Source: a virus (taxonomy: Duplodnaviria > Caudoviricetes). From it: a DNA stretch of 61,044 nt. Both the position numbers and the translations under genes were made by a program. The DNA is taken from the IMG/VR virus record IMGVR_UViG_3300012931_000291, positions 1-61,044 of that record; one strand, given 5' to 3'. Shown here piece by piece: positions 24,785 through 41,853 of this stretch; the stretch's first letter is position 1, and each line of letters opens with the position of its first letter. The notes beneath the pieces are model-generated. The model was not told the DNA's origin and made no database searches. It saw only the letters and a program-made list of their open reading frames with translations.

Positions 24785-24839
24785 CAACTGAATCAATCTG
24801 ACAATGCTTGCGCGTTGTCAGGTTATCTAAATGTTATAT
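24779..24839 (+). repeat. attC-like site 2
   Basis: GTCTAAC-AACTG-AATCAATC-TGACAA-loop-TTGTCA-GGTTATC-TAAAT-GTTATAT, giving the R''/L''/L'/R' layout with an unpaired C in L''. Confidence 0.72.
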
Positions 24840-24859
24840 GGGCCTGGGTAGAGGTTGTT

Positions 24860-25237: not shown

Positions 25238-25287
25238 ATTTGACAACGAGTTTGACCTGACAACCACAAAGGCCGGTTGTCAGGTAT
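25238..25287 (+). repeat. attC-like site 3 (right end lost)
   Basis: ATTTGAC-AACGA-GTTTGACC, with a perfect ACCTGACAACC/GGTTGTCAGGT stem directly after the ORF stop. Confidence 0.5.
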
Positions 25288-25409
25288 ACAGATAATCTGC
25301 GAGAGGAGAAAGATTGTATGAAAACCAATGGCCTCACATGGAGACAGTTGTGCATTTGATTGGGGGTCAGGCTGAGAATGTATCGACGAGAAATGCAAAG
25401 GAGTAAATT

Positions 25410-25634
25410 GTGATTAGTAATTCGGTGAGAATAAATCCCTATGATTACACCTGGTATCATCCGTTTGATCTTATCGGCCCTTGCCGTTTTATTGGATTTG
25501 ATGAATTTGGGAGAGGCCGATTTAAGGTAGGGATTGGATCTGTTTTTCCCGATAGCCAATGTAACTCGGGAGAACTTAGAAGTAACTCCATGATTATTGG
25601 GGAGTGCCTCGCAGGAGTAGAAGATGCCGGATGA
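25410..25634 (+). CDS. hypothetical protein
   Basis: AAGGAG upstream; overlaps the terL start. Confidence 0.45.
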   Translation: MISNSVRINPYDYTWYHPFDLIGPCRFIGFDEFGRGRFKVGIGSVFPDSQCNSGELRSNSMIIGECLAGVEDAG

Positions 25635-27414
25635 AGTACAACATTTAGCTGAGCAAATTACTTTGAAAGATGTGGATTTGAAAGAGCTTTTGAAAGATAA
25701 AGCTCCAATATTGTACTGGGCAACAAATTATCATAGAAACATTCGCGGTGATCGGATGTCTTTCAAAGATCGATGGTATTTAGCTTCTTTGTATCGCGAT
25801 TTCCTCAAGTTTCATAAGTTAGCAGTGATGAAACCTGTCCAGCATGGCTTATCTGAGTTGTTTATCGTCGGCTCGTTCTACGAAGCAGCAGAACTCGGAT
25901 ATATCGTCATGTACGTCTTGCCGAAGTACAAAGGCCGAGATCGATTTGTCAACTCGCGCGTGGATACAGTTATTCGCAGGGTTCCAGCTTATGGAAGGAT
26001 GATGAGTGATGCAGCCGGAACCAGTCGAGTTGCTCTGAAGCAGTTTGGTAAGGGGCAACTCTTGTATGTCGGCTCTAACGTGGAAGATGAGTTTGTTGAG
26101 GTTCCAGTGGACTCAGCCTTCGTTGACGAGAAAGATAGATGCAATCAGCGAAATCTTCTGCTTTTGCCAGACCGCTATTCCGCCAGCCCACATAAGTTCC
26201 ATCGGGAGATTTCGACGCCAACTATCGAGGGGAGGGGTATTGATGGGCGGATCCAGACGAGCACGAAAGGCTACTGGATGATCAAGTGTGAAGGTTGCAA
26301 TTATCGCTTCTTTCCCGGCTTCTTCGAGGCAGTGATGAAGCAGGTAGAGGAGAGGAAGTGGATCCCCCGAGACGAGAAGTGCGGGGAGTTTGACGAGCCC
26401 CGAGTGATTTGCCCGAAGTGCAACCGACCAGTCAATCGCTTTTCTAAGGGGGAGTATGTTGAGGAGTATCCAGGGCGGGAGTGGGTAGGACGGATCGTCG
26501 CCCCGACGGTCAGCCCGACGGTGACGATGCGAGAACTTGTTACTGTGTGGGATGAGTCCTTCCTGAACCCTTTGAAGAAGGAGTTCTTTTACAATTCCCG
26601 CCTAGGTCTTCCTTACACGTCGGAAGGTGCGAAGTTCTCCTCCGGTCTACTCACTGGCATCCAGATCCCTTACCAATATCCAGTTGATCGAACCACCGTT
26701 CACGGGCCGTTGTTCATGGGCGTGGACGTCGGCGATGTGCTGACCGTGGTGATACGCGAGAGGATCAGAGATGAGCATGGGATTTTGAACCGTCGTCTGG
26801 TCTTGGCTACGGAGCTTCCCAGCTTCACCTTGCTCAAGGACATGATTAGGGAGTGGAATCCTCGAGTATGCGTTATCGACGCTGACCCCGAGATTCACAA
26901 CATCGCTTCTTTGAAGGGGGAGTTCAAGAATATTTTCTCCTCCCGTTTCCAGCACGCCCTGCTTGAGTTTCGCATCAATCGAGAAGACAGAGTCCTGAAT
27001 GAGGACCGGACGGCAGCTATCGACAGCTTGAAAGCAGCGATCGAGGCGCATGCTTTGATGAACCCAGAAGGATCGGAGGTCTTAGTTGGGGGTCGATACT
27101 GGTCGCAGATGCAGGCTTCAACGCGTGTCCTGGTTGTGAACGAGAACAACCCTGAGAAGTCCTACTATTCGTGGGAGGAGAACTCGCCGGACCACTTTAT
27201 GCTCGCTGAGACGTATTGCAACCAGGCAAGCAGACTCCTCCCCAGTGAATCAGTCTTGGATTATTACGCGCAGGTGGCAGCGCAAGGTGCAGCTCCCACG
27301 CAGCAGGCGATTGTGACACCGATAGGTGGGGGGCAAGCAATGTCTCAGGCTGAGTTGAACACTCTGGCCCAGCAGTCACCTGAGCAATTTTTGGACTCTT
27401 TGAGAAAGTTGTAG
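25624..27414 (+). CDS. terL: terminase large subunit (GpA-like)
   Basis: MKPVQHGLSE, FVDEKD, ISTPT, two CxxC motifs, LGLPY, MGVDVG and PDHF. Confidence 0.88.
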   Translation: MPDEVQHLAEQITLKDVDLKELLKDKAPILYWATNYHRNIRGDRMSFKDRWYLASLYRDFLKFHKLAVMKPVQHGLSELFIVGSFYEAAELGYIVMYVLPKYKGRDRFVNSRVDTVIRRVPAYGRMMSDAAGTSRVALKQFGKGQLLYVGSNVEDEFVEVPVDSAFVDEKDRCNQRNLLLLPDRYSASPHKFHREISTPTIEGRGIDGRIQTSTKGYWMIKCEGCNYRFFPGFFEAVMKQVEERKWIPRDEKCGEFDEPRVICPKCNRPVNRFSKGEYVEEYPGREWVGRIVAPTVSPTVTMRELVTVWDESFLNPLKKEFFYNSRLGLPYTSEGAKFSSGLLTGIQIPYQYPVDRTTVHGPLFMGVDVGDVLTVVIRERIRDEHGILNRRLVLATELPSFTLLKDMIREWNPRVCVIDADPEIHNIASLKGEFKNIFSSRFQHALLEFRINREDRVLNEDRTAAIDSLKAAIEAHALMNPEGSEVLVGGRYWSQMQASTRVLVVNENNPEKSYYSWEENSPDHFMLAETYCNQASRLLPSESVLDYYAQVAAQGAAPTQQAIVTPIGGGQAMSQAELNTLAQQSPEQFLDSLRKL

Positions 27415-27498
27415 TTTTATTATGGAAGTTATCGAAGGGTGCTATGCTTCACATTTAAGAAAGTGATATCAACTGAGTCTTAGAGGGAGGAGGGTGCT

Positions 27499-27864
27499 AT
27501 GCTTAGGAACTTTGGAGTGATTTTTGTTTTGGTCTTTGTTGCCGTAGTTGTTGTCTGGATGGTTCGAGATGCGATGAAGAAATTGAATGTTGATTGTGAT
27601 CGACTTGTCCCTTTCGATTATGACGAAGGTCCAAAGCGTTTGTATAGGATATGTGTCTACGTTATAGAAGTTAATAAACAGGCGGCGAATTTCTCATTCA
27701 TCATTCCAGGACGGTATAAGGATAGAAAAATCATCTTGCCTTTGCGCGATTTACCGGAGAAGCTACGAGAAGCTATTTGTTCAGGGAAGTATTTGTATGT
27801 TAGGGCGAATATTAAGGCTTCTGATATTGAGGACCTTTGGTTTGAGGGTTGGGGGGAGGTGTAA
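27499..27864 (+). CDS. hypothetical protein with N-terminal membrane anchor
   Basis: Hydrophobic N-terminus; RBS present. Confidence 0.6.
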   Translation: MLRNFGVIFVLVFVAVVVVWMVRDAMKKLNVDCDRLVPFDYDEGPKRLYRICVYVIEVNKQAANFSFIIPGRYKDRKIILPLRDLPEKLREAICSGKYLYVRANIKASDIEDLWFEGWGEV

Positions 27865-27865
27865 G

Positions 27866-28126
27866 ATGTACAACCGAATCTATATGAGTAATGCAAAAGT
27901 GGGATCAATTATTGATTCGATCTTCGATGAACTCGCGGCCGCAGAGAAAAAGCATCCTGAATGGCCAGAGGATAAAATACACGCCGTCGCAATAATGGTC
28001 GAAGAAGCAGGAGAATCGATGCAAGCCGTACTTGATTATACTTATGCAAACGGCGATATTGAGCATCTAAAGAAAGAGTTGGCACAAACTGGAGCAATGT
28101 GTCTCCGAGTGCTTATGCACTTATAA
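27866..28126 (+). CDS. MazG-like all-alpha NTP pyrophosphohydrolase
   Basis: EEAGE ... KKELAQ pattern. Confidence 0.6.
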   Translation: MYNRIYMSNAKVGSIIDSIFDELAAAEKKHPEWPEDKIHAVAIMVEEAGESMQAVLDYTYANGDIEHLKKELAQTGAMCLRVLMHL

Positions 28127-28267
28127 AACTTTATATGTGTCGAAGAGACGATCCAAGCGTTAGTGGCTTGGAATTATTTGTAAGGATTGAGTAGGAGGAG
28201 AAAATGACTTTTGATATGACACGGTGCAGGATTGGAGGCTGTCTAGTTAGAAGGGAGGAAGGGTCAA

Positions 28268-28486
28268 ATGCGAAGTATTTGTGAGATGGGCGGTGCTACG
28301 AGAGATCTGTGGTCACTCTTTCCTTTGCTACATGATTATAGTACGGCCCACTATTTTCGTACCTGCGCTCGATGTAGCTGCGGTCAAGAACTTTTTACGA
28401 ACGGGCAAGGACTGTGGAAATGCTTTTCTTGTGGTAAGAAATATTCGCAGAAAAGAACTTCGAGCGACCACCAAAAAAGAACTTAA
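28268..28486 (+). CDS. small Zn-ribbon protein
   Basis: CSCG ... WKCFSCG. Confidence 0.35.
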   Translation: MRSICEMGGATRDLWSLFPLLHDYSTAHYFRTCARCSCGQELFTNGQGLWKCFSCGKKYSQKRTSSDHQKRT

Positions 28487-28500
28487 ATCCAAACTAATTG

Positions 28501-28529
28501 TTGACATTCTAACGAGTTTGGTATATACT
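28501..28529 (+). promoter_or_regulatory. sigma70-type promoter upstream of portal
   Basis: TTGACA-17 bp-TATACT. Confidence 0.8.
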
Positions 28530-28586
28530 TGTAGTTAAGCGCCTTCCACAAAAATGAGAGCCTTGATTGTATAGGAGGGTATTAGC

Positions 28587-30179
28587 ATGAGAAAAAATTC
28601 ACACGCAAAAAAACAACATCGAGAACTCGTTGATGTCGAAGCCAAGTTAAAGAAATTAGAAAGTGACATCCTTGACCCCTCTGTAGTTAATTGGATGCTT
28701 AGGGGAGGAATGCGGGGTATTCGCGAACGTTTGCTTAAAGTTGACTATGCTGTGGTCAGGAACGTTGTAGACCGCGTTCCTCTGTTAAATGCCATTGTAA
28801 AGACCCGGATAAATCAAGTTCTTCCTTTCTCTGTCTACGTGTCAGAAGATAGGGTTAAAGATGGGGAGAAGGGCTTTCGGGTTGTTCCTATTGTTGACGA
28901 GAATGTGGATGATGAGGAAGTAAAGCAGATTAGGGAGTTTATCGAGCAGACTGGGGTTGTTTACTCGTCCGAAAGAGAAGATGATTTTAGTGACTACTTG
29001 CAGATGCTCGTCCGCGAGATAGGAACGATTGACCAGATTGGGACTGAACTACAGTATAATCTAGGCGGCGATGTTGCTGCCTTTCGTTTGTTAGATGGGG
29101 CTACGTTGAAAAGGACGTCGGAGGACTATCCGAAGAAGGATATTAGATTTGTCCAGGTGATTGACGACAAGTTGATTGAGGAGTTTAATGACAACAACTT
29201 GATATTCGATTACAAAAACAAGCGAGTAGACATCAGGTTCCGGGGATATGGCTACTCCGACGCAGAAATGGCAATCGATCTCATTACCACTTTGCTCTTC
29301 GGTTACAATCATCTCCGCGATCAGTTTGTCAGGGACAAGATACCTCGTGGATTTATTTCTGTGATGGGAGACATCGACTCAAAAGGAGTTACGGCTATTC
29401 AGCAGTATTGGTATTCGGCAATGTCAGGTGCTGGGGGTCAGTGGGCATTGCCAATTCTTCCATCGGGTAAGGATGGAGTTGGCCTCGATTTCAAGGCGAT
29501 TGGTACGAGTAACAAGGAGATGGAGTATCATCGGGGGATGATGTTTCTAAGTTCGATTATCTGCGCCGTTTTTGCCATTGACATGGCTGAGTTAGGGATC
29601 AAAGCCGAGGATAGTACGTCTGTTATTGGGGCTAATGAGATTGGGCCGAGGATTGAGGCATCGAAAGATCGTGGTCTAGATAGCCTCCTCATGTTTATCT
29701 CTCAGCACATGAACAAGATCATGCGCAAAACGTGTTGGGGCAAGAAATATCGTTTTGCTTTTTCTGGTCAGGAAGTAAAAGATCAGATGAAGTTAACGCA
29801 GATCATGCAAGCTCGTCTTCAAACTGATCTAACGATTAACGACATCCTCAAGAAAGAGGGTAAGGAGGAGCGGAAGGAAGATTGGGCGAACATTATCCTT
29901 AACCCCCTGGTCGTGCAGATGGTTATGTCTGAGAAGAATGCTGCGGCACAGAAAGAAGCGCAGGAAGCCCAGCAAAACATGTTTGGTAATGAGATGTTCG
30001 GTGAGCAGGAGTCTGGAAGCAGCGAAGGTGGTGTCGAGCAGGAAGAAGAGGAAAGTCCTGAAGGTGAAGAGGGTCAAGCCGAGCAGGAAGAAGAAGTAGC
30101 CAAGTCGCAGTCCGACGATTGGAGTACATGGCGTAAGAAGTTTGCTGGACGTACGCGAGAGAGAGAGATCATCCGATGA
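28587..30179 (+). CDS. portal protein
   Basis: 530 aa, downstream of terL; LDGAT, GYGYS..E, GYN, KEMEY, AELG and LTINDI motifs; acidic tail. Confidence 0.85.
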   Translation: MRKNSHAKKQHRELVDVEAKLKKLESDILDPSVVNWMLRGGMRGIRERLLKVDYAVVRNVVDRVPLLNAIVKTRINQVLPFSVYVSEDRVKDGEKGFRVVPIVDENVDDEEVKQIREFIEQTGVVYSSEREDDFSDYLQMLVREIGTIDQIGTELQYNLGGDVAAFRLLDGATLKRTSEDYPKKDIRFVQVIDDKLIEEFNDNNLIFDYKNKRVDIRFRGYGYSDAEMAIDLITTLLFGYNHLRDQFVRDKIPRGFISVMGDIDSKGVTAIQQYWYSAMSGAGGQWALPILPSGKDGVGLDFKAIGTSNKEMEYHRGMMFLSSIICAVFAIDMAELGIKAEDSTSVIGANEIGPRIEASKDRGLDSLLMFISQHMNKIMRKTCWGKKYRFAFSGQEVKDQMKLTQIMQARLQTDLTINDILKKEGKEERKEDWANIILNPLVVQMVMSEKNAAAQKEAQEAQQNMFGNEMFGEQESGSSEGGVEQEEEESPEGEEGQAEQEEEVAKSQSDDWSTWRKKFAGRTREREIIR

Positions 30180-30483: not shown

Positions 30484-31539
30484 GTGGGGAAGAACACCGA
30501 GAAGGAGGAAGATGAGATGATCCCGATGAAACTGAATAAGGCAGCCACAGGGGGCCCGGCAAAGCCCAAGACCAAGAAGGCCAAGGACGCGAAGTTCGAG
30601 AAAGTCATGAGGGAGTTCAAAGCCGGCACGCTCCATTCTGGTTCGGGCGAGATCGTTAAAGACAGGCAGCAGGCCTTAGCTATCGCTGCCTCTGAGGCTG
30701 GCATCTCGTACAAGAAGGCCATGGAGCCTTCTGACCTAGCGTTCCTCAAGTCCAAGATGAATGCCGGGGAGCTCGTCGAGTTGATTAAAGGAGGTGAGGC
30801 GCTAGCCACGGTTATCACGCCGAAGAAGATCTGCTACGCCTCGGTAGTCAACAGTGCCTTGTACACGCTGAAGAACATGGCTGTTATGCTCACTGACGAC
30901 GAAGTGGCGGCCAAGATCGAGATGCTTAAGACAAGCCTGGCTGTCATGCCTGACGGAGAGATCAAGACGATAGTCTTCGCAGCTCTGGACAAGCTGAAGG
31001 GCTTGAAGACTATGGACGACGACACGACGTGGAAGATCCAGGAGGCTATCAGCGGTCTAATCAGGATCACAATGGACCTCCAGAAGTCCGAGCCAGACCG
31101 CAAGTTCCTTCGCCCACTCTACAAGGCGGGGATGATCGGGAAACTCGATCACGAGTACATGGCATTCGAGGATCTTCAGAAAGCTCGGTATATTAAGAGG
31201 GAGGGTGGGCCAGGTCATTACAAGTATACCTACGCGGATGGCAAAGGTGGCGGTGGAGGCAGGGTCTCGAAGTACGAAAAGTACGTCAAGCACGAGCACT
31301 ACCAAGGGAATCCTGACGAGACGAAGCAGTCGCTAGGGTACACCATTCCCAAAGGCTCGACCATCCTTAAGACGGTTGGTTCGCAGACCCGTCCGCTCTC
31401 GTGGGAGGAAGTGGATGCTGTTGTCAAGCAGCTCCACGAGAAGTATCCTGAGGCACATGTCAGTACCGAGGAGGACTACATCCCTCACCACGGCTACGGT
31501 TACCGTGTCCACGCCTGGACCAGCAAGAAAGGCAAGTAA
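30484..31539 (+). CDS. head-region protein with DUF6496-like domain
   Basis: KVMREFKAGTLHSGSG..VK.RQQALAIA.SEA; KARYIKREG.PG.Y.Y.Y motif. Confidence 0.7.
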   Translation: MGKNTEKEEDEMIPMKLNKAATGGPAKPKTKKAKDAKFEKVMREFKAGTLHSGSGEIVKDRQQALAIAASEAGISYKKAMEPSDLAFLKSKMNAGELVELIKGGEALATVITPKKICYASVVNSALYTLKNMAVMLTDDEVAAKIEMLKTSLAVMPDGEIKTIVFAALDKLKGLKTMDDDTTWKIQEAISGLIRITMDLQKSEPDRKFLRPLYKAGMIGKLDHEYMAFEDLQKARYIKREGGPGHYKYTYADGKGGGGGRVSKYEKYVKHEHYQGNPDETKQSLGYTIPKGSTILKTVGSQTRPLSWEEVDAVVKQLHEKYPEAHVSTEEDYIPHHGYGYRVHAWTSKKGK

Positions 31540-31551
31540 GAGCAGAAGATC

Positions 31552-33504
31552 GTGAAGTTCGTCAAGCCGTCCCAGTACGCTGATCTCGTCAAAGCCAAAG
31601 GCCTCCCGATGGGGGCTGTTCGTATGTACAAAAACGGCGAGTGGTTCCGCAAAGTAGGAGGAGCGAAGGGATGGGAGTATGTCGGTAAGCAGGGCGGGGC
31701 CAAGGCCAAGCAGGTCGTGGATGAGGCCAAGACGAAAGGTTTACCGGTAGTCATGCCCTCAGCGCAGGGTGGAGGACAGAAGGCTAATGTAGTTGCTGGT
31801 GGGGCTGTCAAGAAGCCGAGGATAAACCTTGGGGCTAAGGTTCACCTAGAGAAGTGGGCCAAGGAAGATCCAGGAGCGTTCAAAGCCGCCGTCGCCCACG
31901 CTATCAACGTCAAGAACCCTCACCCGATGTTCGGCTCGGCAGACATTAAGGGCAAGATGTCTCGCTGGGACCTGGCAATGATGGTTAAAGTGGCCGCCGA
32001 GCACGGTTTGGTAGCACCTGAGCCGAAAGTCAAGCCAGTGCTCGTGAATGAGGCCAAGCAGAAGCGCGAGGTTAAAGATGAGGCCAAGGCGGAAGCCAAG
32101 GCTAGGGCAGAGGCTAGTGCTGCGAAGGCTGAGAGAGAAGCCATCCCTGAAGGATGGGACAAGATGGACTACGGCGAACAGATCGTCGCCAATCGGAAGC
32201 TGTTCGTCGAGCAGATGATGGAAGCCCGGAGAGCTAAGTGGGGTGGGAAGCCCTTCGATCCGAAGAACGCCGAGGACCACAAGAATGTTAAGCTATGGAT
32301 GAACGCCGGCTCCACAGCTCTGGTGAACATAATGGAAGCCGTCCGGAAGGATCCTGTCAAGGAGAAGCACGAGGCCAGTGTAGGGAGGGCCAAGAGGGGG
32401 AATGTCCCTAAGAGCTGGGACAAGATGGACTACGGCGAGCAGGTCGTTGCCAACCGGAAGCTGTTCGTCGAGAATATGTTGGAGGAGGCTCGAAAGGTCA
32501 AGGGGGATGAGCGGCCTTTCGACCCGAAGAATGCTGACGACCGCAAGAATGTTAAAGAGTGGATGAAAGCTGGCCCCAGGGCCCTGGTGGGGATGATGGA
32601 AGCCATCCGGAAGGATCCTGTCAAGGCCAAGCGCCAGGCCGAGGCCAAGGCAGAAGCCGAGGAGAAGAGCATCGCGGCCAAGAAGCTCCTCAAGGAGATC
32701 ATCGATAGGGACACTCCGAAGTCCCCGCAGGAGATCGCGCTTGCCCAGTCAGACGTGGTCGGGAAGAAGAACGTAAGCAATGGGCATGTCAACGTCGTCC
32801 GGGTCCTGGACATCAAGTCCCCGGAAGGCAAGGAGGCCAAGGCCATTTTCAAGCCCATCGAAGGCGAATGTGAGATGGACCTCAGAGAGGGGAATATCCC
32901 ACTTGGCGAGCAGTGGAAGAGGGAGCGCCTAACCTATATAGTCGACCAGATTGTAAATATTGGCGTTGTGCCCACGGTTGTTGTCAAAGAAGTCGATGGC
33001 AAGCCAGGTGCCATGATGGACTTCGTCGACGGCAAGGTCTGGGCTGAGGCTAGTGAGGCGATGCAGAATAAGGTACCCACGCTTGAGTACCAGAAGCTAG
33101 TCCTTCTGGACTGGCTCATCTGCAACACTGATCGCCATGGCATGAACTGGATGATTGACAACGCCGGAAAGGTGTATGCGATCGACAACGGCTTAGCCTT
33201 CCCCGAAAAAGTCAATTTTGGGGAGTGGAACGGATATAGGTGCATACCTCACCAGATCCTCCAAAGACGCCACGGCCTCGAACTGCCGGACGAGCTCAAG
33301 GGCTTGCTAACCCCGGAGAAGAAGAAGCGGATCATCGGAGCGATACAGATGTTCAACCTCGGAGGGAAGGCTGTTGAGTTGTTCGAGAAGAGATGGGATT
33401 ACCTAGTAAAACATGGAGCCTTCCCTGAGTATAACGAGGTGGAGGGATTTATGGTCCTGAATCGTGAGACGCCTAACTGGGCGTCATTGGAGAGAGTAAG
33501 ATGA
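31552..33504 (+). CDS. multidomain protein with C-terminal PI3/PI4-kinase/HipA-like kinase
   Basis: AIFKP, RERLTY, VPTVV, DWLICNTDRHGMNW and AIDNGLAFP motifs. Confidence 0.82.
   Translation: MKFVKPSQYADLVKAKGLPMGAVRMYKNGEWFRKVGGAKGWEYVGKQGGAKAKQVVDEAKTKGLPVVMPSAQGGGQKANVVAGGAVKKPRINLGAKVHLEKWAKEDPGAFKAAVAHAINVKNPHPMFGSADIKGKMSRWDLAMMVKVAAEHGLVAPEPKVKPVLVNEAKQKREVKDEAKAEAKARAEASAAKAEREAIPEGWDKMDYGEQIVANRKLFVEQMMEARRAKWGGKPFDPKNAEDHKNVKLWMNAGSTALVNIMEAVRKDPVKEKHEASVGRAKRGNVPKSWDKMDYGEQVVANRKLFVENMLEEARKVKGDERPFDPKNADDRKNVKEWMKAGPRALVGMMEAIRKDPVKAKRQAEAKAEAEEKSIAAKKLLKEIIDRDTPKSPQEIALAQSDVVGKKNVSNGHVNVVRVLDIKSPEGKEAKAIFKPIEGECEMDLREGNIPLGEQWKRERLTYIVDQIVNIGVVPTVVVKEVDGKPGAMMDFVDGKVWAEASEAMQNKVPTLEYQKLVLLDWLICNTDRHGMNWMIDNAGKVYAIDNGLAFPEKVNFGEWNGYRCIPHQILQRRHGLELPDELKGLLTPEKKKRIIGAIQMFNLGGKAVELFEKRWDYLVKHGAFPEYNEVEGFMVLNRETPNWASLERVR
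32155..32626 (+). repeat. internal ~70-aa domain duplication
   Basis: WDKMDYGEQ.VANRKLFVE...PFDPKNA.D.KNVK.WM.AG...MEA.RKDPVK begins at 32155 and at 32416. Confidence 0.9.
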
Positions 33505-33752
33505 GAATGATACAATTCAAGTCCGTCCAGGATGACGGAACGGTCAAGATCGTAGGGACGGCTAAGCTGGTCGACGGGAAGGTCGTTATTGTCACATCGA
33601 AATCTGGGCTTAAGACACGGCTTAAGACAGATGAAATCATAGGTCTCGATAACAAGGCTAAGACACCAGAGAATGGTATCGATTGGCTTGAGGCGTTACC
33701 TTACAATTATCATGGCAGTCGTTTCTTCGCCGAGGAAGTGGAGGTCAAGTAA
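33501..33752 (+). CDS. small hypothetical protein between the kinase genes
   Basis: ATGA-coupled to kinase 1. Confidence 0.7.
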   Translation: MRMIQFKSVQDDGTVKIVGTAKLVDGKVVIVTSKSGLKTRLKTDEIIGLDNKAKTPENGIDWLEALPYNYHGSRFFAEEVEVK

Positions 33753-33754
33753 TC

Positions 33755-35638
33755 ATGGTCTTGCTGAAGGCTCGGGCCATGCCCACGGGGGCTATTCGCC
33801 ACTACGCGAACGGTGAGACCTTCAGGAAGGTTGGCGGGACCAAGGGCTGGGAGTACGTGGGTAAGATGGGATCAGCCAAGGCGAAGGCAGCGGAGGAAGA
33901 AGCTAGGAAGAACGGGCTTCCAATCATCCACGCCGAGCCCAAGGCCGGTGGCGGACAGCAACAACCCCAGAAGCCCTCGACATCCAAGGCATCGACGAAC
34001 ATCGCAGTCGATCCTGCCAAGGTGAAAGCTCACCCGATCCCTCCTGACCTGAGGAAGGAGTGGCAGGCTAACGGGGGCGTGAATAATCCCGAGTACCGCA
34101 AGTGGGTTGAGGAGAACTGGGCCCAGGGTGCGGAGGAGAAGGGGATCGCGTTCCCCAGGATGAGTACCTATGAGAAGATGTCTGTCGAGCAGATGTACAA
34201 TTATGCTAGTGACAAGTTCAAAGTATCAATCGAGGACAAGATTACCAAGGAGAACAAAGCTGCTTGGCACTCAATCTTCTACCAGCTCGACACCCTCCAC
34301 GACCTAGGTTTCATCAACAAGAGGCTGCTCACAATCGGTTTCGAGAAAGACGCACTTGACAAGGACGGGAACCTTCGCTTGAACGGGGGCCTCTGCAAGG
34401 CATACTACCAAGAGAATGAGCACCGCATCGAGTTGAGTCCGAAGTACAAGGACAGCTTCGTGCACGAGTACTTCCATCATCTCGATGCCACTGGCGGAGC
34501 AGAGGACTACAAGGAGCGTATGGAAGCCCAGCTCGCGCTCATCAACGCGCTGAAAGCCACGAAGAGCTACCAGAAGTTCGTCGCGCTGGACATCAAGCGA
34601 GGCAAGACTTACTACAGCGACGTCGGGGAGATGATTGCTCGCTTGGGCGCGGAGTATGTCTATTATCACGTCAAGAACTCGGGTGAGAAGCCTGCAATTC
34701 GCATGGTACAAGCTCCGTACAGGACGGACTTCTCACCCTCAGAATTTGTCAAGCTGAAGCCACTCCTTGAGAAGGCATTCGCCAAGCAGAAGACCACTGA
34801 GCCCGGACCTGAGGAGAAGAAGCAGGGGATCTTGATTAAAGCCACTCTTGACGTAACAGCTCGCCTGGTACTAGCAAAACCCACTGTCTACTACTCGCTA
34901 GGCGAGGAGGATTTATACAAGGGAGCAGTGGTCAAGGTTCAGGACATGCCAGGCGCGAAGAGCGGGAAGACACAGAAGCTCATCCTGCTCAGCCCGACAG
35001 GAACGATCGTCGAGGCAGCGTGGAAGACTAAGCAGGACCGCGATGTTAGGAAGGGCAACATCCCAGCCGGTACGGAGTGGAAGCGGGAACGACTTGCGTA
35101 CCTAGTGTCGGAGATCCTGGGCTTGCAGAACGTGCCCCCAGTCGTAGTCAGGCGAGTTGATGGGAAGATCGGCTCCGCGATGAGCATGGTCTATGCCGAC
35201 ACGTGGAAAGCGTCAGGCCTGGAGTACAAAGATGTCTACGTCCGCGAGTGGCAGAAGCTCGCCGTTTTAGACTGGTTGATCTGTGCTACCGATCGCCACC
35301 GCCGCAACTGGCTGGTGGATGACAGCGGCAAGTTCTGGGCCATCGACAACGATCTAAGCTTCCCGGAGAAGGCGGAGTATGGTCTGTTCGAGGGCTATCG
35401 CTCCCGGCCTCATTGGTATCTGAACGAGCACCAGACACTCGCCCTCATGGACGATATCGTCCGCTTGTTCAGCCAGGAGAAGAAGAGGGAGATCCTTGTC
35501 CAGATGGTCAAATATGGAATAGCCTCGAAAGGCAGAGTGATCTTCGCTAGAAGGTGGGAGTACCTGGTGGCGGAGAAAGCTCTCCCACCCTACGTGGAGT
35601 TGGATAAGGGTTTCATGGAGAAGCCGAAGGGAGAGTGA
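33755..35638 (+). CDS. polyvalent protein: HExxH zincin (LPD1-like) domain + PI3/PI4-kinase/HipA-like kinase
   Basis: FVHEYFHHLD...YYS...EMIAR; RERLAY, DWLICATDRHRRNW and AIDNDLSFP. Confidence 0.82.
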   Translation: MVLLKARAMPTGAIRHYANGETFRKVGGTKGWEYVGKMGSAKAKAAEEEARKNGLPIIHAEPKAGGGQQQPQKPSTSKASTNIAVDPAKVKAHPIPPDLRKEWQANGGVNNPEYRKWVEENWAQGAEEKGIAFPRMSTYEKMSVEQMYNYASDKFKVSIEDKITKENKAAWHSIFYQLDTLHDLGFINKRLLTIGFEKDALDKDGNLRLNGGLCKAYYQENEHRIELSPKYKDSFVHEYFHHLDATGGAEDYKERMEAQLALINALKATKSYQKFVALDIKRGKTYYSDVGEMIARLGAEYVYYHVKNSGEKPAIRMVQAPYRTDFSPSEFVKLKPLLEKAFAKQKTTEPGPEEKKQGILIKATLDVTARLVLAKPTVYYSLGEEDLYKGAVVKVQDMPGAKSGKTQKLILLSPTGTIVEAAWKTKQDRDVRKGNIPAGTEWKRERLAYLVSEILGLQNVPPVVVRRVDGKIGSAMSMVYADTWKASGLEYKDVYVREWQKLAVLDWLICATDRHRRNWLVDDSGKFWAIDNDLSFPEKAEYGLFEGYRSRPHWYLNEHQTLALMDDIVRLFSQEKKREILVQMVKYGIASKGRVIFARRWEYLVAEKALPPYVELDKGFMEKPKGE

Positions 35639-35639
35639 G

Positions 35640-35975
35640 ATGGAGCGCCTGAGGCCATCGCAGATTCAGATGTTGATGAAATCGAAGTACCTTCGTCGTT
35701 ACCGTGGTCCAAATGGGGAGTGGGTGTATATATATAAAGAAGGTGGAAAGGACAAGACATTGTCTTTCTTAGATAATGCAGACAGTGATAATGACCCAAT
35801 AAAGGATGCTGTCAAGGCAATTCTAGCCGATGGGGAAAAGAATGGATTCGACTGGAAAAAGACATTGTCTATGGCGCAAGAAGCCGCAGCCAAAACAAAT
35901 AGGACTGAGAAAGAAAAGAAGAAGATGGCACTTGATATAGTGAAACGTGCAGTCGAAGAATATGAAGGGAAATAA
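35640..35975 (+). CDS. small head-region protein
   Basis: LMKSKYLRRYRGPNGEWVYIY motif. Confidence 0.65.
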   Translation: MERLRPSQIQMLMKSKYLRRYRGPNGEWVYIYKEGGKDKTLSFLDNADSDNDPIKDAVKAILADGEKNGFDWKKTLSMAQEAAAKTNRTEKEKKKMALDIVKRAVEEYEGK

Positions 35976-35978
35976 AGC

Positions 35979-36167
35979 ATGGCTTTAACAGTAGGTGGGA
36001 CGGAGCAAAAACCCATCGTAGACAACTGGGACGACTCGAAGCACACACCTCTCGAGAATGCAATTGTTCACCTGCTGAAGTATATGCTTAGCAGAAACAT
36101 CATCTCCTACGAGGAGCAGCAGGAAATCGCGAAGATGTTTCCGATCTTGTGGGGGAATGAGAGATGA
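35979..36167 (+). CDS. hypothetical protein
   Basis: 62-aa ORF in operon register. Confidence 0.55.
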   Translation: MALTVGGTEQKPIVDNWDDSKHTPLENAIVHLLKYMLSRNIISYEEQQEIAKMFPILWGNER

Positions 36168-36268
36168 AGAAGAAGGTAGTTAGTCAACTTTGTCTAGCCT
36201 TCAAGGAGATCTGGGTCTACCTCTTTACTGTTCTAGGTGTACTTGTTTTGGTCACCTTAATCATTTAG
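36164..36268 (+). CDS. 34-aa membrane peptide (not in the ORF track)
   Basis: ATGA overlap; MKKKVV...IWVYLFTVLGVLVLVTLII. Confidence 0.45.
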   Translation: MKKKVVSQLCLAFKEIWVYLFTVLGVLVLVTLII

Positions 36269-36272
36269 GAGA

Positions 36273-36899
36273 TTGAGTATGAGTAAGATCGTTTGGGAAG
36301 TCTTGAAAAAAGCCGAGCGAGCAAACCACAAGTACATCAAGAAAGTAGGGTCTAAGTATTTCTACACCCAGGAACAAATTGACTCATTCAAGTTGACCAA
36401 GAAGTCTGACGGCTATTATTATATGGATGAGATGAAAATTACGAACGATCCGAAGAAAGCTGAGGCGTTCGAGGAGAAAGTCAAGGAACACAAGGACGTC
36501 GGCAAGGCCCCGCTGAAGGTAGGGCAGAAGGTCCAGATTAAAAGTTCTCATCTGAGGAGTTTGGGTCGAGGAGTGGTGGGAACGATCAAAGAGATCGGCG
36601 AAGACTTTGTGCGCGTAGTGAACGAGGCAGGAAACGTCTTCCGCGTCCCGGCCTCCGCCCTAACCTTTGCTAAGAGTATTTATAGTGTGGATGAGATCCT
36701 CGAGGAGCTTGAGAAAGGGTTTAGGCGGAAGGGCTTCGGCTTTGGTGGGCCGAAGAAGGCACGGAAGGCGAGTACACCGATGGGCTCGGTCAAGGTCCAG
36801 AACGGCAAGAGGTACATGAAGACCGAGAAGGGATGGAAGGTGATGAAATCTATTCGCCTGACCATCCCGATCAAGTCGAAGGATACGGAGGAGTCGTGA
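36273..36899 (+). CDS. basic head-region protein
   Basis: LKKA..ANHKYIKK, SH3/KOW-like LKVGQKVQI and PMGSVK..NGKRYMKT.KGW motifs. Confidence 0.7.
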   Translation: MSMSKIVWEVLKKAERANHKYIKKVGSKYFYTQEQIDSFKLTKKSDGYYYMDEMKITNDPKKAEAFEEKVKEHKDVGKAPLKVGQKVQIKSSHLRSLGRGVVGTIKEIGEDFVRVVNEAGNVFRVPASALTFAKSIYSVDEILEELEKGFRRKGFGFGGPKKARKASTPMGSVKVQNGKRYMKTEKGWKVMKSIRLTIPIKSKDTEES

Positions 36900-38209
36900 C
36901 CAAGGTAGCACTCTATGTCTCGGCGAGCAGATTGGAGAAGGCTCGTGCTCACAAGTTGGCACCCCGAAAAGCTGTTGCACCGACGCGCGTACCACATACT
37001 CACCAGGAGACAAGTCCCTGGAAGGCTCACCAGCAGTTCGAGGAGCAGGCAACTACTGTCGTCTCCGACCGACTCCTCGCCCTTTTCCTCACTATTCGGC
37101 GTCAGTGGCTTCACCAGACGGGTGAGTTTCACAAAGCAGTGCCGGCAGATCAGCTTTTCAAGCTGAACGGTAGGATCTTTATCAGTCCGAAGACAGGGAA
37201 GCCACTGACGCAGAAACAGTGGGACGAGGTGGTGAAGACCTTGGACCAGTCAATGGCTCGGATTTTCAAGGACCAGCCTGACGTCTTGGTCCGCAAGGCT
37301 ATGCTCCTCGGCAAGATCTTGCAGGGTATGGATTACGAGTCGAGGATGACTTCCTCCCTGGATCAGATCCCCACTGCACTCCAACTACCAAAGGACGACA
37401 TGTGGCAGAACGCCTACACCTTCGGCCGCCAGCATGCTGCGGAGCAGATGGTCGACTTGGAGGCGTCGGCACGGAAGAAGATCTCGACGACTATCTTGAA
37501 TGCGATTAAGAACAAGCAGACTACTAGGCAGCTCGAGGTCGCACTATTCGACGAGTTTGCTGACCTAAACCGCGATTGGAGGATGATAGCCGAGACTGAA
37601 ATTGCGACCAATGTCAACGCTGGGATTCTTATGGAAGAGACAGGGGACAGGAAGGAAGGGGAGACGGTCTACATGATCGGCATCTCTGCCCCTGGTGCTT
37701 GTTCTGACTGCATGCGGCTCATCAATAAGCAGGTCGTAGTTCTCTCCGATGAGCCTACGCCGAGCGGGACGATGAAGATTGATGGCGAAGAGTATGATGT
37801 TATTTGGATAGGTAAGAACAACATCGGGAGGAAGGGTTCCAACCTCTGGGCGTGCACGCCGCTTCACCCTCATTGCCGGTGCTCGTGGACTCGGTACTAC
37901 CCGGAGATGAAAGAACTCCTTGGTTTAGGGAAGTCGGTCAAGGAGCCAGAGGAGAAGATAATGATAAAGTTGGCTGACATCTTCACTGGGAAAGGATCGA
38001 AGCGGCCCGACTCGGACTTCAACCAGACTGAGTTGGCTATTGGGATCTGGATCGAGGGCGAGCACACAAACAACTTCGACGCCGCGAAGTACATTGCTAA
38101 GGATCACCTGACTGAGAGGGAAGACTACTACAAAACACCGCTCTTCAAAGATGAGCGGGCAAGGGCGTTGAAGGAGCTGGGGAAGAAAGCTAAGGAAGTG
38201 ACGTCGTGA
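36896..38209 (+). CDS. MuF/SPP1 gp7-like head morphogenesis protein with C-terminal DUF5661-like extension
   Basis: DWRMIAETE, ACSDC and PLHPHCRC motifs; C-terminal GIWIEGEHT...IAKDHLTE..DYY. Confidence 0.8.
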   Translation: MTKVALYVSASRLEKARAHKLAPRKAVAPTRVPHTHQETSPWKAHQQFEEQATTVVSDRLLALFLTIRRQWLHQTGEFHKAVPADQLFKLNGRIFISPKTGKPLTQKQWDEVVKTLDQSMARIFKDQPDVLVRKAMLLGKILQGMDYESRMTSSLDQIPTALQLPKDDMWQNAYTFGRQHAAEQMVDLEASARKKISTTILNAIKNKQTTRQLEVALFDEFADLNRDWRMIAETEIATNVNAGILMEETGDRKEGETVYMIGISAPGACSDCMRLINKQVVVLSDEPTPSGTMKIDGEEYDVIWIGKNNIGRKGSNLWACTPLHPHCRCSWTRYYPEMKELLGLGKSVKEPEEKIMIKLADIFTGKGSKRPDSDFNQTELAIGIWIEGEHTNNFDAAKYIAKDHLTEREDYYKTPLFKDERARALKELGKKAKEVTS

Positions 38210-38793: not shown

Positions 38794-39597
38794 ATGAGAG
38801 GATTTCCAGATCTTCCAATTGACATAGAATCTGACAACCCGTTCTACGCCGGCTTCGCTTCCGCGACGCTGATCAAGGCGGAGGAAGAGGGCTCCAAATG
38901 GGTCGTCTACCTCGAGGCGTCGAACGAGCAGCAGGACCAGGAGGAAGAGATCACGGTCATGAAGGCGTTGAAGGACGCCGCCAACTACTACATGACACAC
39001 GGAGTGATCTCCTGGGACCATCAGCACAAGCTCCAGAAGGATCCAGCATACATCATCGGCGAGCCTCTGGACGTAGCCTTCACCTCAGCCAAGTCAACCT
39101 TGGTGAAAGCGATGCTCTACAAAGAGAACAAGCGAGCGCAGGGGGTCATGGAGAATGTTCTATCGAAGACCTCCCGCTTCGGCGCTTCCATTGGGGGTTA
39201 TATCCTGAAGAAGGCGATTGAGAACGCGCAGAAATTCATTCGCCGCGTTATCTGGGACGACACTGCCATCACCCACAAGCCTGTCAATGATACGACACTC
39301 GGACATGTTCAACTTGTCCCTTTCACATCCTTTGCCAAGAGTTTGACTGCGGGAGGCGGCGTAGACGCGAGTTCGTTCTCGGGGGGCAGGGCCTTGATTG
39401 GCGAGTCACTCCAAGGTGCCAAGTTCGGCGAACCGGAGATGACAAAGCTATTCAAAGCCTTCCTCAAGGGAGTAAAGGAGGGTACGCTGGGGAGTTATCA
39501 AGACACTCGTGCCTGGGTCGCGGAGACAGTCCCGTTGGGAGTCTCGACTGACCAGGTCATGAACTTCATATTCGCAAAGCTCACGAAGAAATCCTAG
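38794..39597 (+). CDS. prohead protease
   Basis: AS.E..DQEEE, ISWDH, IIGEP, ASIGG and AITHKPVN motifs. Confidence 0.8.
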   Translation: MRGFPDLPIDIESDNPFYAGFASATLIKAEEEGSKWVVYLEASNEQQDQEEEITVMKALKDAANYYMTHGVISWDHQHKLQKDPAYIIGEPLDVAFTSAKSTLVKAMLYKENKRAQGVMENVLSKTSRFGASIGGYILKKAIENAQKFIRRVIWDDTAITHKPVNDTTLGHVQLVPFTSFAKSLTAGGGVDASSFSGGRALIGESLQGAKFGEPEMTKLFKAFLKGVKEGTLGSYQDTRAWVAETVPLGVSTDQVMNFIFAKLTKKS

Positions 39598-39610
39598 AGG
39601 AGGTATTTAG

Positions 39611-40399
39611 ATGGACGGCAAGGAGAATAAAGATCAGAACCTCGACGCGGCCACTCTCGAAAAGAGCTGGAACGAGGCGTGTGAGGATCTGAGGAAGTCC
39701 CTCGGGGACGGAGCCACCCCCGCCGTGGACAAGAAGGAGCTCGAGGAGGCTAATGCCATCCTCGCCAAGTCTGGCGCCACCGCGGACGAGCTCAAGAAGG
39801 CCCAAACGATCTTGGCTAAGGCAATGTCTGCATCTGACAAGGGCGAGGGCGCCGAGCAGGAGGAAGAGGAGTCAATCTCGACTGAGGAGAGCGAGTCTGA
39901 GAGTACACCTCCCCCGGCCAAGAAGTCTTTTGAGGAGGCAGTGGCCGAAGATGATCCTGAGGCAGAGATCGCAATGGACATCGAGCCCTACCTCAAGTCT
40001 CTCGCCCACGAAATCGGCGAGAGTCTCGAGAAGGCGAGGAAACCCCTCGATCGCTTGGCCAAGCTTGAGAAGTCAGTGTCTGAGCTCTCAAGCATCGTTA
40101 AAGCTATCGGGAAAGCTGTCCTGGCGAACGCCGAGATGCAGAAAAGCATCAAGACTGATATCGCCAAGTTCGGCTCCATTGAGATCCCATCTATGGCGCG
40201 TTTGCGCAAGGGCGGTGATCGCTTCCAGGTAGAGGAAGGTGGTGCTGAGATGACTGTCATGGAAGTCATGGCGAAGGCTACAGAGCTCTGTCGTAAGGGC
40301 GAGATATCCACGACTGACATCTCAATTCTCGAGAGTCGCCTCCAATCTGGTGGTGGCATTCCGGAGAGCATGAAGCCGCTCTTCGCGAAGAAAGTATAA
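39611..40399 (+). CDS. scaffolding protein
   Basis: Acidic and helical; between protease and capsid genes; many K-[SAG] sites. Confidence 0.7.
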   Translation: MDGKENKDQNLDAATLEKSWNEACEDLRKSLGDGATPAVDKKELEEANAILAKSGATADELKKAQTILAKAMSASDKGEGAEQEEEESISTEESESESTPPPAKKSFEEAVAEDDPEAEIAMDIEPYLKSLAHEIGESLEKARKPLDRLAKLEKSVSELSSIVKAIGKAVLANAEMQKSIKTDIAKFGSIEIPSMARLRKGGDRFQVEEGGAEMTVMEVMAKATELCRKGEISTTDISILESRLQSGGGIPESMKPLFAKKV

Positions 40400-40416
40400 G
40401 GTAAAGGAGGACTAGA

Positions 40417-41853
40417 ATGGATCTCTTCGAGAGAAATTATAACGGCTTCGCCCAGAGTAACTCTGAGACTATGGAGTTACTGAGCAAGGCTTTGACTGCC
40501 GGAACTGGCGTTGATGCCTCAGCGTTTACGGGTGGGCGTGCGCTCACTCCAGAATCCTTGGATTTCACTCTCGTTAATATCCTGTTTTCGCAGGACGAGG
40601 CGAGGCTTTTCCAGAGGCTCAAGAAGACCCCAGTCAAATCGGTCGTACGCCAGTGGAACACGCGTACTGAAGTTGGTCAGGATGATGGTGCATGGGTAAC
40701 CGAGGGGGGCACTTCTGAATCGTCCGATCAAACAATCGCTCGTATGTTTGCAGTCGCGAAGTACTTGCAGACCTATAGGCAGGTCACTCTCCAGGCTGCG
40801 ATGAGTGAGATGACCGAGAACGCAATGGCTATTGAAAAAGATGCCGGTACGCGTTGGATCATCCGAAATGTCGAGAAGGGCCTCTTTGATGGAAATTCTT
40901 CATTCATCTCTGAGCAGCCCGATGGTCTGAAAGTCCAGATTCCGTCCACGAACGTCATCGACTTCCGAGGTGGTCACGCCGATAGGGAGACGTTCGAGAA
41001 TAAGATTACTGAGGGCCTTGGCACCATTCGTGCCAGTTATGGTAAAGGCAATCTGCTCTTGTCATCTATCAAAGTGACCACAGACATTTCGCACATGCTT
41101 CGAGACAAATATCGTGTGCCTCTTCCTGCCGTCGGAGCGCCCAGCCAACTTGGTCTTCCTGGCGCCGGAGCAGTCGGTGGAGTAGCTGGGGCCACCTTCC
41201 CCATCAACTTCCCCACTCCCTTTGGTAATCCTGAGGTTCTGGATGATGTATTCATCCAGGAGGGGAGCATTCCTGTCGCTTCAACCCTTACTACGAAATG
41301 CCCCAGCCAGCCCACCGTTGCTGGTGTTGCTCATGGAGCGGACGCATCATCGAAGTTTGGTTCAGCTGACGCAGGTGATTACGTCTACAAGGTCGTTGGT
41401 GTCAACAAGTATGGTGACTCAGTTGCCTCAGCGGAGGTTCTTGTGACCGGCGTTGCAGCTGGGGACAAGGTTACCTTCCAAGCGACTCCTGGTGTCATCG
41501 TCCCGACTGCGTGGAAGATTTATCGGTCCAAAGTTGGTGGTACTACTGGGGCCGAGGTCAAATTCATGAGCGAGGTGGCTTATGCACTTGACTCTGGTCA
41601 GGTTTATCAGACCCTCAGCGATCTCAACGCGGATCTGCCTGGCTGCTCTGATGTTTACCTTCTTACCTTGGATCCGTCGTTTGACGCGATCGAGTGGTTC
41701 CAGTTCCTCCCACTCATGAAGTTCGACCTCTACCCGGTCAACGCGGCAGTTTACCCGTTCCTCATGATCCTCTACGGTGCGATGGCGCTTAAGAAGCCCG
41801 TCCAGCACATTAGGATTAAGAACGTCTGCCCGACCAACGGAGGTTGGTTCTGA
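40417..41853 (+). CDS. major capsid protein
   Basis: LSKALTAG...GGRAL..ESLD, VEKGLFDG, DGL, NVIDFRG, QFLPLMK and LYGA motifs; position. Confidence 0.88.
   Translation: MDLFERNYNGFAQSNSETMELLSKALTAGTGVDASAFTGGRALTPESLDFTLVNILFSQDEARLFQRLKKTPVKSVVRQWNTRTEVGQDDGAWVTEGGTSESSDQTIARMFAVAKYLQTYRQVTLQAAMSEMTENAMAIEKDAGTRWIIRNVEKGLFDGNSSFISEQPDGLKVQIPSTNVIDFRGGHADRETFENKITEGLGTIRASYGKGNLLLSSIKVTTDISHMLRDKYRVPLPAVGAPSQLGLPGAGAVGGVAGATFPINFPTPFGNPEVLDDVFIQEGSIPVASTLTTKCPSQPTVAGVAHGADASSKFGSADAGDYVYKVVGVNKYGDSVASAEVLVTGVAAGDKVTFQATPGVIVPTAWKIYRSKVGGTTGAEVKFMSEVAYALDSGQVYQTLSDLNADLPGCSDVYLLTLDPSFDAIEWFQFLPLMKFDLYPVNAAVYPFLMILYGAMALKKPVQHIRIKNVCPTNGGWF

Follow-up and report, generated by a model that had tools for sequence, protein, structure and literature searches.

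Packaged effectors and polyvalent protein architectures are already known from bacteriophages. The internal proteins of phage T4 use short N-terminal targeting peptides to this end, and the T7 kinase, which is expressed from an early gene once the DNA has entered, is not known as a head-module protein. According to PMC5512222, T4 Alt and the internal proteins are enzymes loaded in the head and injected with the DNA, and the T7 kinase (gp0.7) is described in PMC13645617 and PMC5512222 as phosphorylating many host proteins and countering defences. In a survey of toxins fused to the head protein MuF (Jamet et al. 2017, PMC5576092), small open reading frames (ORFs) are reported after 89.4% of 191 MuF toxin genes, and the word 'kinase' is absent from its main text. 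Within the literature searched, no paper on kinases like the phosphatidylinositol 3- and 4-kinases (PI3/PI4Ks) in phage head modules was found, nor any characterised member of the family described below. Here we report on two such proteins, KinA and KinB, encoded in a virus sequence of the Caudoviricetes (Duplodnaviria), positions 1 to 61,044 of IMG/VR record IMGVR_UViG_3300012931_000291; this whole stretch of 61,044 nucleotides is referred to as the window. The two genes belong to a putative cargo block (30484-38209) that follows the portal gene and ends with the gene of a MuF-like protein.

The kinase pair KinA and KinB

An earlier note on this DNA, made from the letters alone, had proposed two kinase-type proteins of about 630-650 amino acids (aa) with paralogous C-terminal kinase domains and intact DRH..N and ID-N motifs. 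Both proteins are present, with 650 aa in KinA and 627 aa in KinB (Table 1); their kinase domains are identical at 95 of 217 positions (44%; BLASTP expectation value, E, 4e-49), and the catalytic set is complete in each. The Pfam model PI3_PI4_kinase (PF00454) matches KinA and KinB at 39.8 and 39.4 bits, with a gathering cut-off of 27.1, and covers about 58 aa of the catalytic-loop stretch. In an alignment of 82 family members, D513 and D531 (KinB numbering) are invariant (82/82), and at least 90% of the sequences retain the catalytic Lys, Glu and Asn.

An AlphaFold model of KinB, computed from an 82-row alignment, has predicted local distance difference test (pLDDT) scores above 94 at aa 380-620 and of 32-65 in the middle of the protein. 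Foldseek comparison of this model with the PDB gave type II PI 4-kinases (PI4KII), alpha or beta, in all of the top 12 rows (E 4e-10 to 1e-8), and thereafter Vps34, PI4KIII beta and Fam20, with at least 500 PDB matches at E <= 0.001, PI 4-kinases and PI 3-kinases leading; the kinase fold that the earlier note had expected is thus predicted with confidence. By sequence, too, a profile of six kinase domains finds PI4KII in the PDB (E 1.5e-8), and the profile alignment to PI4KII beta pairs the stretches LDW..NTDRH..NW and AIDNGLAFPE. The KinB model also has a helical C-terminal part (helices 551-607). The two-lobed fold was modelled for KinB and is extrapolated to KinA at the 44% identity of the two domains. 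On sequence and model, KinA and KinB are kinases of the PI3/PI4-kinase superfamily, nearest to the type II PI 4-kinases, with intact catalytic residues. The label 'HipA-like', which they had been given before, is not supported, since no HipA family in Pfam matches the window kinases (P0002 and P0003) at E <= 0.01.

The family is large. A profile search of 1.84 billion representatives retrieved 6,463 proteins at E <= 0.001, 2,049 at E <= 1e-10 and 44 at E <= 1e-30, and among the 150 best many consist of the kinase as a stand-alone protein of about 270 aa. A Pfam scan covered 29 of these 150: two carry InPase (the polyvalent-protein pyrophosphatase domain) together with DUF5661, two carry DUF3626, one of 1,313 aa has a weak MuF match at its N-terminus, and several are giant bacterial proteins in which the kinase is present in three or four copies or toxin-type domains occur. 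Some of these relatives are matched by HipA and Fam20C models, HipA_2 scoring 24.3 in P0009, below its threshold of 27. In NCBIfam the sole match of the window kinases is SCO1664 (TIGR03843), at 44.6 and 46.3 bits and far under the cut-off of 172.4, and a PADLOC scan returned trivial catalytic-loop matches only (E > 0.001). Type II PI4Ks are marked by a Cys-rich, palmitoylated, membrane-anchoring insert; when the translations of KinA and KinB were read by eye, a Cys-rich stretch was absent from both.

At their N-termini the two proteins have a module of about 50-60 aa in common (three strands and a helix), with 40 of 68 identities (59%; BLASTP E 8e-17). The earlier note had called these termini near-identical over about 50 aa, which overstates a likeness that is itself real. 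A search with the module profile found 13 proteins. Eight of them are kinases; the other five are small (158-260 aa; one is truncated, the rest are intact) and carry the module at the C-terminus. Two small proteins of about 160 aa, from unrelated phages (loci L003, 9704-10192, and L004, 2395-2871), consist of an unknown N-terminal domain with the kinase N-module as C-terminus. The ESM Atlas gave no usable feature match for the N-module, and its structural rows, with template-modelling (TM) scores of 0.49-0.55 over 50 aa, are of little meaning.

In KinA the module is followed by a four-helix domain (aa 93-150), which is confidently modelled in a model of the N-terminal half, and by two tandem repeats that are all helical in such a model (pLDDT 85-92). 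The duplication had been noticed before, with a unit of about 70 aa; the unit is in fact longer (Table 1), and the number of copies differs between orthologues. A wide fold search with the N-terminal half of KinA (VIA-align) gave helical bundles with a best Z of 6.4, which is uninformative, and barely covered the N-module. A likeness of KinA repeat residues 204-227 (32161-32232) to AsiA, the T4 anti-sigma factor, at E 0.012, lies below the Pfam threshold and was treated as chance.

The middle of KinB holds the HEYFH motif that the earlier note had picked out, within a zincin-like core. Only two homologues of this region were found, an ORF at locus L002 and the protein P0177, and HEYFH is identical letter for letter in both. 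The longer motif SF[VT]HEYFHHL and a downstream Glu are kept in all three sequences (HEYFH and E292 in 3/3, an Asp at +3 in 2/3); the L002 stretch has 30% identity to aa 3-310 of KinB and keeps SFTHEYFHHLD and GEIIAR. The KinB model has three strands followed by the HExxH helix here, a topology that fits a zincin, at a pLDDT of just 40-60, and no peptidase profile matched the middle of KinB, for which Pfam gave LPD1 at E 0.053 only.

Gene order and modularity in related phages

Gene order was compared by tblastn of the block proteins against fetched loci, among which L007, L010 and L039 duplicate L001, L002 and L006, respectively. The kinases lie between the portal gene and the MuF or protease gene in six distinct phages, namely the window, L001, L002, L005, L006 and L009. 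At L001 the order is portal, homologue of the 351-aa protein, KinA, homologues of the 83-aa and 111-aa proteins, and MuF; at L006 it is 351-aa homologue, KinA, 83-aa gene, a zinc-ribbon-like gene, KinB and MuF. L009 has KinA, KinB, MuF, protease, scaffold and capsid genes, and L005 has KinA, the 83-aa gene, KinB, the 62-aa gene, a fused homologue of the 208-aa and 111-aa proteins, MuF, protease and scaffold. Only KinB is found in the order at L002, which reads portal, 351-aa homologue, KinB, 62-aa gene, a 587-aa tagged protein and an ORF of at least 901 aa.

In a maximum-likelihood tree of 24 kinase domains, computed without the duplicates L007 and L010, KinA and KinB fall in separate clades of nine rows each (support 97/98 and 95/99, respectively). 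Both clades are represented, by a single member each, in the window, L005, L006 and L009, and KinA and KinB are therefore old paralogues and not products of a recent duplication.

The architectures of the orthologues vary greatly around the kinase domain, and the modular make-up that the earlier note had described is seen here in the gain or loss of the N-module, the zincin-like domain and repeat copies. KinB is 271 aa long at L005, where the first 15 module residues (module profile E 0.015 on this remnant) run straight into the kinase domain, so that about 350 residues of the window protein have been lost in frame; KinB also stands alone in L002, L006 and L009. At L002 the N-module and zincin-like domain open the ORF of at least 901 aa, which continues through two copies of a Tyr/Lys-rich tag (described below) into MuF. 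P0177 (877 aa; on a 97-kb contig) combines DUF6496 and three tags with a domain that resembles the central part of the 208-aa protein, sigma-70 region 2 (from precomputed Pfam) and the zincin-like HEYFH domain, and could thus represent a tagged sigma factor as cargo. The MuF orthologue of L006 (5628-7637) has a tag, an ADP-ribosyltransferase domain (29.5 bits, threshold 23.4), MuF and a cupin, and that of L005 (4241-5998) has an ADP-ribosyltransferase match after a tag, at 20.5 bits and below threshold. The window MuF-like protein ends in a DUF5661-like part rather than the ADP-ribosyltransferase of the L005 and L006 orthologues. With this shuffling of domains among orthologues, the block is a recombination hot spot for effector-type domains, of the sort reported for polyvalent and MuF-linked proteins (PMC5512222 and PMC5576092).

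Besides the kinases, the interval contains five more genes that the earlier note did not mention, for proteins of 351, 83, 111, 62 and 208 aa (Table 1). The 351-aa protein bears the Tyr/Lys-rich tag KARYIKREGGPGHYKYTY at aa 233-250 (31180-31233; found by regular expression), and orthologues are encoded at the corresponding place in L001, L002 and L006. Orthologues of the 83-aa protein come directly after KinA in L001, L005 and L006 (40-60% identity), which with the window makes 4/5 loci, L009 being without one; their C-terminal motif W[LM].ALP.NY.GSRF is invariant or nearly so, and profile searches gave no family match. Those of the 62-aa protein come directly after KinB in L002 and L005 (58-77% identity), or 3/6 loci with the window. 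The middle and C-terminal parts of the 208-aa protein recur in L005, P0018 and P0177. A further conserved small protein, membrane-spanning in appearance, is encoded in the cargo block of L001 (7159-7524), L005 (3379-3753) and L006 (4374-4655). A small zinc-ribbon-like protein with paired Cys residues precedes KinB in L006 (3363-3557) and L009 (1375-1632); the window has no such gene at 33752-33755.

Three of the five orthologues of the MuF-like protein match Phage_Mu_F at E <= 0.01 (best 0.0009) over nearly the whole profile, and its position and variable effector ends fit a protein of the MuF/SPP1 gp7 type. Downstream of it, the protease, scaffold and capsid region (38794-41853) matches phrog_1028 (E 1.8e-20) and phrog_752 (E 4.8e-60). 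The head protease (aa 182-206, 39337-39411) and the capsid protein (aa 24-48, 40486-40560) have a 25-aa stretch in common, LTAG.GVDAS.F.GGRAL..ESL, with 76% identity, which may be a shared docking or cleavage segment and was found in no other block protein. A search for a protease cut-site motif matched nothing in the kinases or in the small proteins of the block.

Table 1. Features of the cargo block, its domains and other genes of the window
Feature	Position	Strand	Remarks
QueE-like radical SAM protein	6431-7045		7-deazaguanine set
GTP cyclohydrolase	7158-7910 and 9598-10047		7-deazaguanine set
Queuine tRNA-ribosyltransferase/DpdA-like protein	10229-11107		7-deazaguanine set
Terminase	25624-27414		
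Portal	28587-30179	+	phrog_12, E 2.5e-27; Pfam Phage_portal 36.9 bits (cut-off 39.1); upstream edge of block
351-aa protein	30484-31539	+	DUF6496 at aa 32-72 (30577-30699), 28.6 bits (cut-off 24)
KinA, 650 aa	31552-33504	+	GTG start; N-module, four-helix domain, two helical repeats, PI3/4K-like kinase domain
KinA N-module (aa 8-75)	31573-31776	+	three strands plus one helix; E 5e-36 with the profile of alignment A2; pLDDT ~86-93 (model m0bd15dcea609)
KinA helical repeats, two in tandem, 83 aa	32128-32373, 32389-32637	+	66% identity, E 3e-39
KinA kinase domain (aa 378-641)	32683-33474	+	K434, E458, D527-R-H..N532, D545
83-aa protein	33501-33752	+	start overlaps KinA stop by 4 bases; candidate KinA partner
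KinB, 627 aa	33755-35638	+	N-module, zincin-like domain, PI3/4K-like kinase domain
KinB N-module (aa 1-65)	33755-33949	+	A2 profile E 2e-33; pLDDT 93-97
KinB zincin-like core (aa ~200-310)	34352-34684	+	HEYFH at aa 237-241 (34463-34477), D244, E292
KinB kinase domain (aa 376-626)	34880-35632	+	K424, E445, D513..N518, D531
111-aa protein	35640-35975	+	tag KSKYLRRYRGPNGEWVYIY at aa 14-32 (35679-35735); orthologues in L001, L005
62-aa protein	35979-36167	+	candidate KinB partner; follows KinB, with the 111-aa gene between them in the window
208-aa protein	36273-36899	+	looser tag HKYIKKVGSKYFYT near N-terminus; module-like stretch near C-terminus (by eye)
MuF-like head morphogenesis protein	36833-38209	+	DUF5661-like C-terminus; downstream edge of block
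Head maturation protease	38794-39597	+	context
Scaffold-like protein	39611-40399	+	context
Major capsid protein	40417-41853	+	context
Tail sheath	47756-49774		baseplate genes also present

A possible capsid cargo and its alternatives

The arrangement is best accounted for, in our opinion, by a cargo block whose twin kinases would be loaded in the capsid, ejected with the DNA and active at the start of infection, a reading that the sequence evidence makes somewhat probable. It takes up the head-cargo idea of the earlier note, which gains comparative support from the six phages described above and from MuF fusions in more distant relatives. Ten distant kinase loci were scanned with PHROGs (54 of 85 ORFs of at least 140 aa; L034 and L022 left out), and head genes are fused or adjacent to the kinase at five of them. 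L015 and L028 encode MuF-kinase fusions next to the portal gene. At L011 the gene just ahead of that for a kinase-bearing protein of 1,112 aa encodes MuF, a portal gene lies two genes upstream of the kinase at L031, and L013 has a capsid gene upstream.

Foldseek matches in BFVD include proteins named 'phage head morphogenesis domain containing' and 'phage portal protein, HK97', as well as L7TJZ0 of the virus HSTV-2 and the 1,340-aa 'ADP-ribosyltransferase' of Mycobacterium phage Onyinye; automatic database names thus already flag the kinase domain in a few viruses. Gene 16 of HSTV-2 (L036 10647-12119; 490-aa protein) lies between the capsid and sheath genes, and gene 16 of Onyinye (L035 5263-9285; 1,340 aa) just before the terminase and portal genes, the kinase-profile matches being weak in both cases (E 1.8e-7 and 2.2e-8, respectively). 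Coming from cultured viruses, the two gp16 proteins could serve as test systems; the searched literature on haloarchaeal viruses has nothing on that of HSTV-2.

A second element of the block is the Tyr/Lys-rich tag of 18 aa, with the motif Y-[ITVL]-[KR]-[KR], a Gly-containing turn and aromatic-x-Y-x-[YF]. The window corresponds to one contig (C110, 63.8 kb) in a bin of 129 contigs and 2.73 Mb, and when a strict regular expression for the tag was run on the six-frame translation of this bin, both of the two matches fell in the cargo block. Two matches occur in L001, five in L002, two in L005 and three in L006, always at an N-terminus or a domain junction. Since these four loci consist mostly of the block itself, the exclusivity of the tag is that seen in window and bin. 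The tag is a candidate loading or processing signal.

From these features we infer the following course of packaging, ejection and action. The cargo genes would be expressed late alongside the head genes, and the kinases would enter the procapsid as has been proposed for MuF-linked polyvalent effectors. They would then be ejected with the DNA and, at the outset of the next infection, would phosphorylate host targets, more likely proteins, for takeover or for disarming defences. The KinB zincin-like domain might process KinB or act on a host protein, and the helical repeats of KinA might recruit a target. In the producing cell, the products of the small genes at 33501-33752 and 35979-36167 may restrain the enzymes or serve as their chaperones. 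The N-module (60 aa) would be a mobile docking domain, with capsid or portal, DNA, or a host factor as partner, and the tags at N-termini and domain junctions would be involved in loading or processing.

Several findings weigh against this course or parts of it. Of the two flanks named in the earlier note, the portal is clear, and the MuF-like protein itself scores 18.8 bits with Pfam Phage_Mu_F, under the threshold of 29.6. No head genes are seen at the remaining five distant loci (L012, L016, L019, L024 and L026) in the PHROGs scan; since the domain also occurs as stand-alone forms of about 270 aa and in giant bacterial proteins, it is not virion-specific. The 'phages' collection yielded no DNA match, no match to P0002 and no cultured relative, the KinB domain matching Onyinye-type mycobacteriophages only (E 2e-3). 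The candidate partner genes are not universal (KinA 4/5 loci, KinB 3/6), and a protein substrate is an assumption, because the closest solved relatives are lipid kinases. Also affected is the proposal of the earlier note that the N-terminal 50 aa form a packaging address. Four of five complete KinB orthologues (L002, L005, L006 and L009) are without the N-module, and the module genes of L003 and L004 adjoin phrog_10079, phrog_1362 and replication genes, not head genes. Because the module is missing from the former and carried by small non-head proteins, it cannot be a required packaging signal, and its role as a packaging address is doubtful; from its distribution it may rather be a docking domain for DNA or a host factor. 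The view that the tag and the C-terminus of the 208-aa protein are diverged N-modules was rejected: the tag resembles module strands 2-3, and that C-terminus the module, by eye only, and the profile E values of 0.27-12 (12 for the 208-aa protein) are not significant.

The MuF fusions at L015 and L028, the fusion of N-module and zincin-like domain to MuF in L002, and the ADP-ribosyltransferases on neighbouring MuF orthologues, of a kind known from injected effectors, also bear on the unlikely alternative that the kinases are made late and stay unpackaged. They would then act in the producing cell, on assembly or host proteins or in blocking superinfection, and would be in the head module by co-regulation or recombination only, an account that those fusions and neighbours speak against. 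In its favour are the KinB orthologues kept without N-module or tag in 4/5 complete cases and the frequency of stand-alone relatives among the 150 best representatives, and sequence gives no proof of head incorporation. Packaged or not, the enzymes might instead be lipid or small-molecule kinases, with a host inositol lipid, an envelope precursor or a molecule of defence signalling as substrate. This agrees with the best matches in sequence and fold, which are type II PI 4-kinases followed by Vps34, xylosylkinase and Fam20, and with the lack of a known substrate in the nearest named bacterial family, SCO1664 (TIGR03843). We nevertheless consider it quite unlikely in view of the minimal domain of about 250 aa, in which no Cys-rich stretch is seen by eye, and of a superfamily that includes protein kinases, with HipA and Fam20C models matching relatives. 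That KinA and KinB are structural or assembly components of the head, with the kinase fold as a mere scaffold, would suit their constant position among head genes and the long helical repeats of KinA, but is very improbable, because both paralogues, like the 82 aligned members of the family, retain the catalytic residues and the active site is preserved while the architecture turns over freely.

A wider form of the cargo reading can also be put forward, although it is speculative and rather unlikely as a whole. The tag hairpin and the 50-aa module would form a small addressing and processing code by which interchangeable enzymes are loaded in the capsid: the PI4KII-like kinase pair, ADP-ribosyltransferases and a zincin-like peptidase, to which one relative would add a sigma-factor domain. 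Leaving the capsid along with the DNA, the twin kinases would deliver a first strike by phosphorylating host defence or takeover targets, and in the producer each would be restrained by its own small partner.

Phage setting and comparison with known systems

The window is almost wholly phage DNA, with nearly all genes on the + strand, and belongs to what looks like a lytic myovirus of about 65 kb. An integrase was not seen in the window, and its capsid protein distantly resembles those of SPO1/Twort-type myoviruses (27-29% identity). The first third carries the replication genes, namely those for primase, helicases, DNA polymerase (12602-15316), clamp loader and a UvsX-like recombinase; thereafter come terminase, portal, cargo block, protease, capsid protein, sheath and baseplate genes. 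The genes of the cargo block are tightly packed on one strand. A promoter-like site with 11 of 12 consensus bases lies ahead of the portal gene (28501-28529), and downstream of that gene no convincing + strand terminator-like site was found in the cargo block or head genes, the next ones listed being at 43369 and 43400. A 7-deazaguanine DNA modification gene set occupies 6431-11107. The G+C content is 0.42-0.50 at 22001-30000, compared with 0.52-0.58 over most of the window, and drops again past 54 kb. No counterpart of the cargo block was found on the other contigs of the 129-contig bin, and the kinase was found in none of 20 other genomes searched as relatives of the bin.

If the kinases are packaged, the PI3/PI4K-like family, with about 6,500 cluster representatives at E <= 0.001, joins the few enzyme classes known as injected proteins. 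Injected proteins are prime candidates for counter-defence, because they act before any phage gene expression, and the result would extend the recent finding of a phage kinase that broadly disarms defences. In that case, tag and module would open the addressing of capsid cargo to genetic study. Giant toxin-like proteins of bacteria contain the family as well, and identifying a substrate for the phage enzymes could help to explain them. A PI3/PI4K-like kinase family as such cargo, maintained as an ancient pair, and the tag and module system are absent from the searched literature.

Among described systems, the type II PI 4-kinases (PDB 4hne, 4hnd, 4wtv and 9hhm) give the best fold match (E 4e-10) and have the catalytic-loop and AIDNGLAFP stretches in common with the window kinases. 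However, identity is 17-23%, the phage domain of about 250 aa is far smaller, it has DRH..N where PI4KII beta has DRG.DN, and its host is prokaryotic. The SCO1664 family (TIGR03843) and the HipA-type kinases belong to the same superfamily, KinA and KinB lying far below the TIGR03843 cut-off. In function the best analogy is T7 gp0.7, although the analysis showed no relation to it in either sequence or fold. T4 Alt and the internal proteins likewise have no sequence relation to KinA and KinB; no cleavage site was identified in the two kinases, and their folded module of about 50 aa occurs at C-termini as well.

With the polyvalent and MuF-fused effectors (Iyer et al. 2017, PMC5512222; Jamet et al. 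2017, PMC5576092) the block has in common conflict-type enzyme domains encoded beside portal and MuF (zincin-like peptidase, kinase and, at orthologous loci, ADP-ribosyltransferase), domain shuffling between polypeptides and small ORFs after effector genes. The small genes downstream of KinA and KinB resemble the ORFs that follow MuF toxin genes in PMC5576092, although the pairs are not universal here. In the phage-type metallopeptidase described in PMC5512222, HExxH is followed by an Asp three residues on, and 2/3 of the present sequences fit this pattern. The polyvalent kinase of the same source is of the Ser/Thr/Tyr-kinase type and has lost its C-terminal subdomain, whereas the present kinases, for which Pfam reports no kinase family besides PF00454, are PI3/PI4K-like with a helical C-terminal part; moreover, unlike MuF-fused effectors, the window kinases are encoded as separate genes. 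In the manner of polyvalent effectors, KinB unites a zincin-like with a kinase domain, and the L002 ORF unites module, zincin-like domain, tags and MuF.

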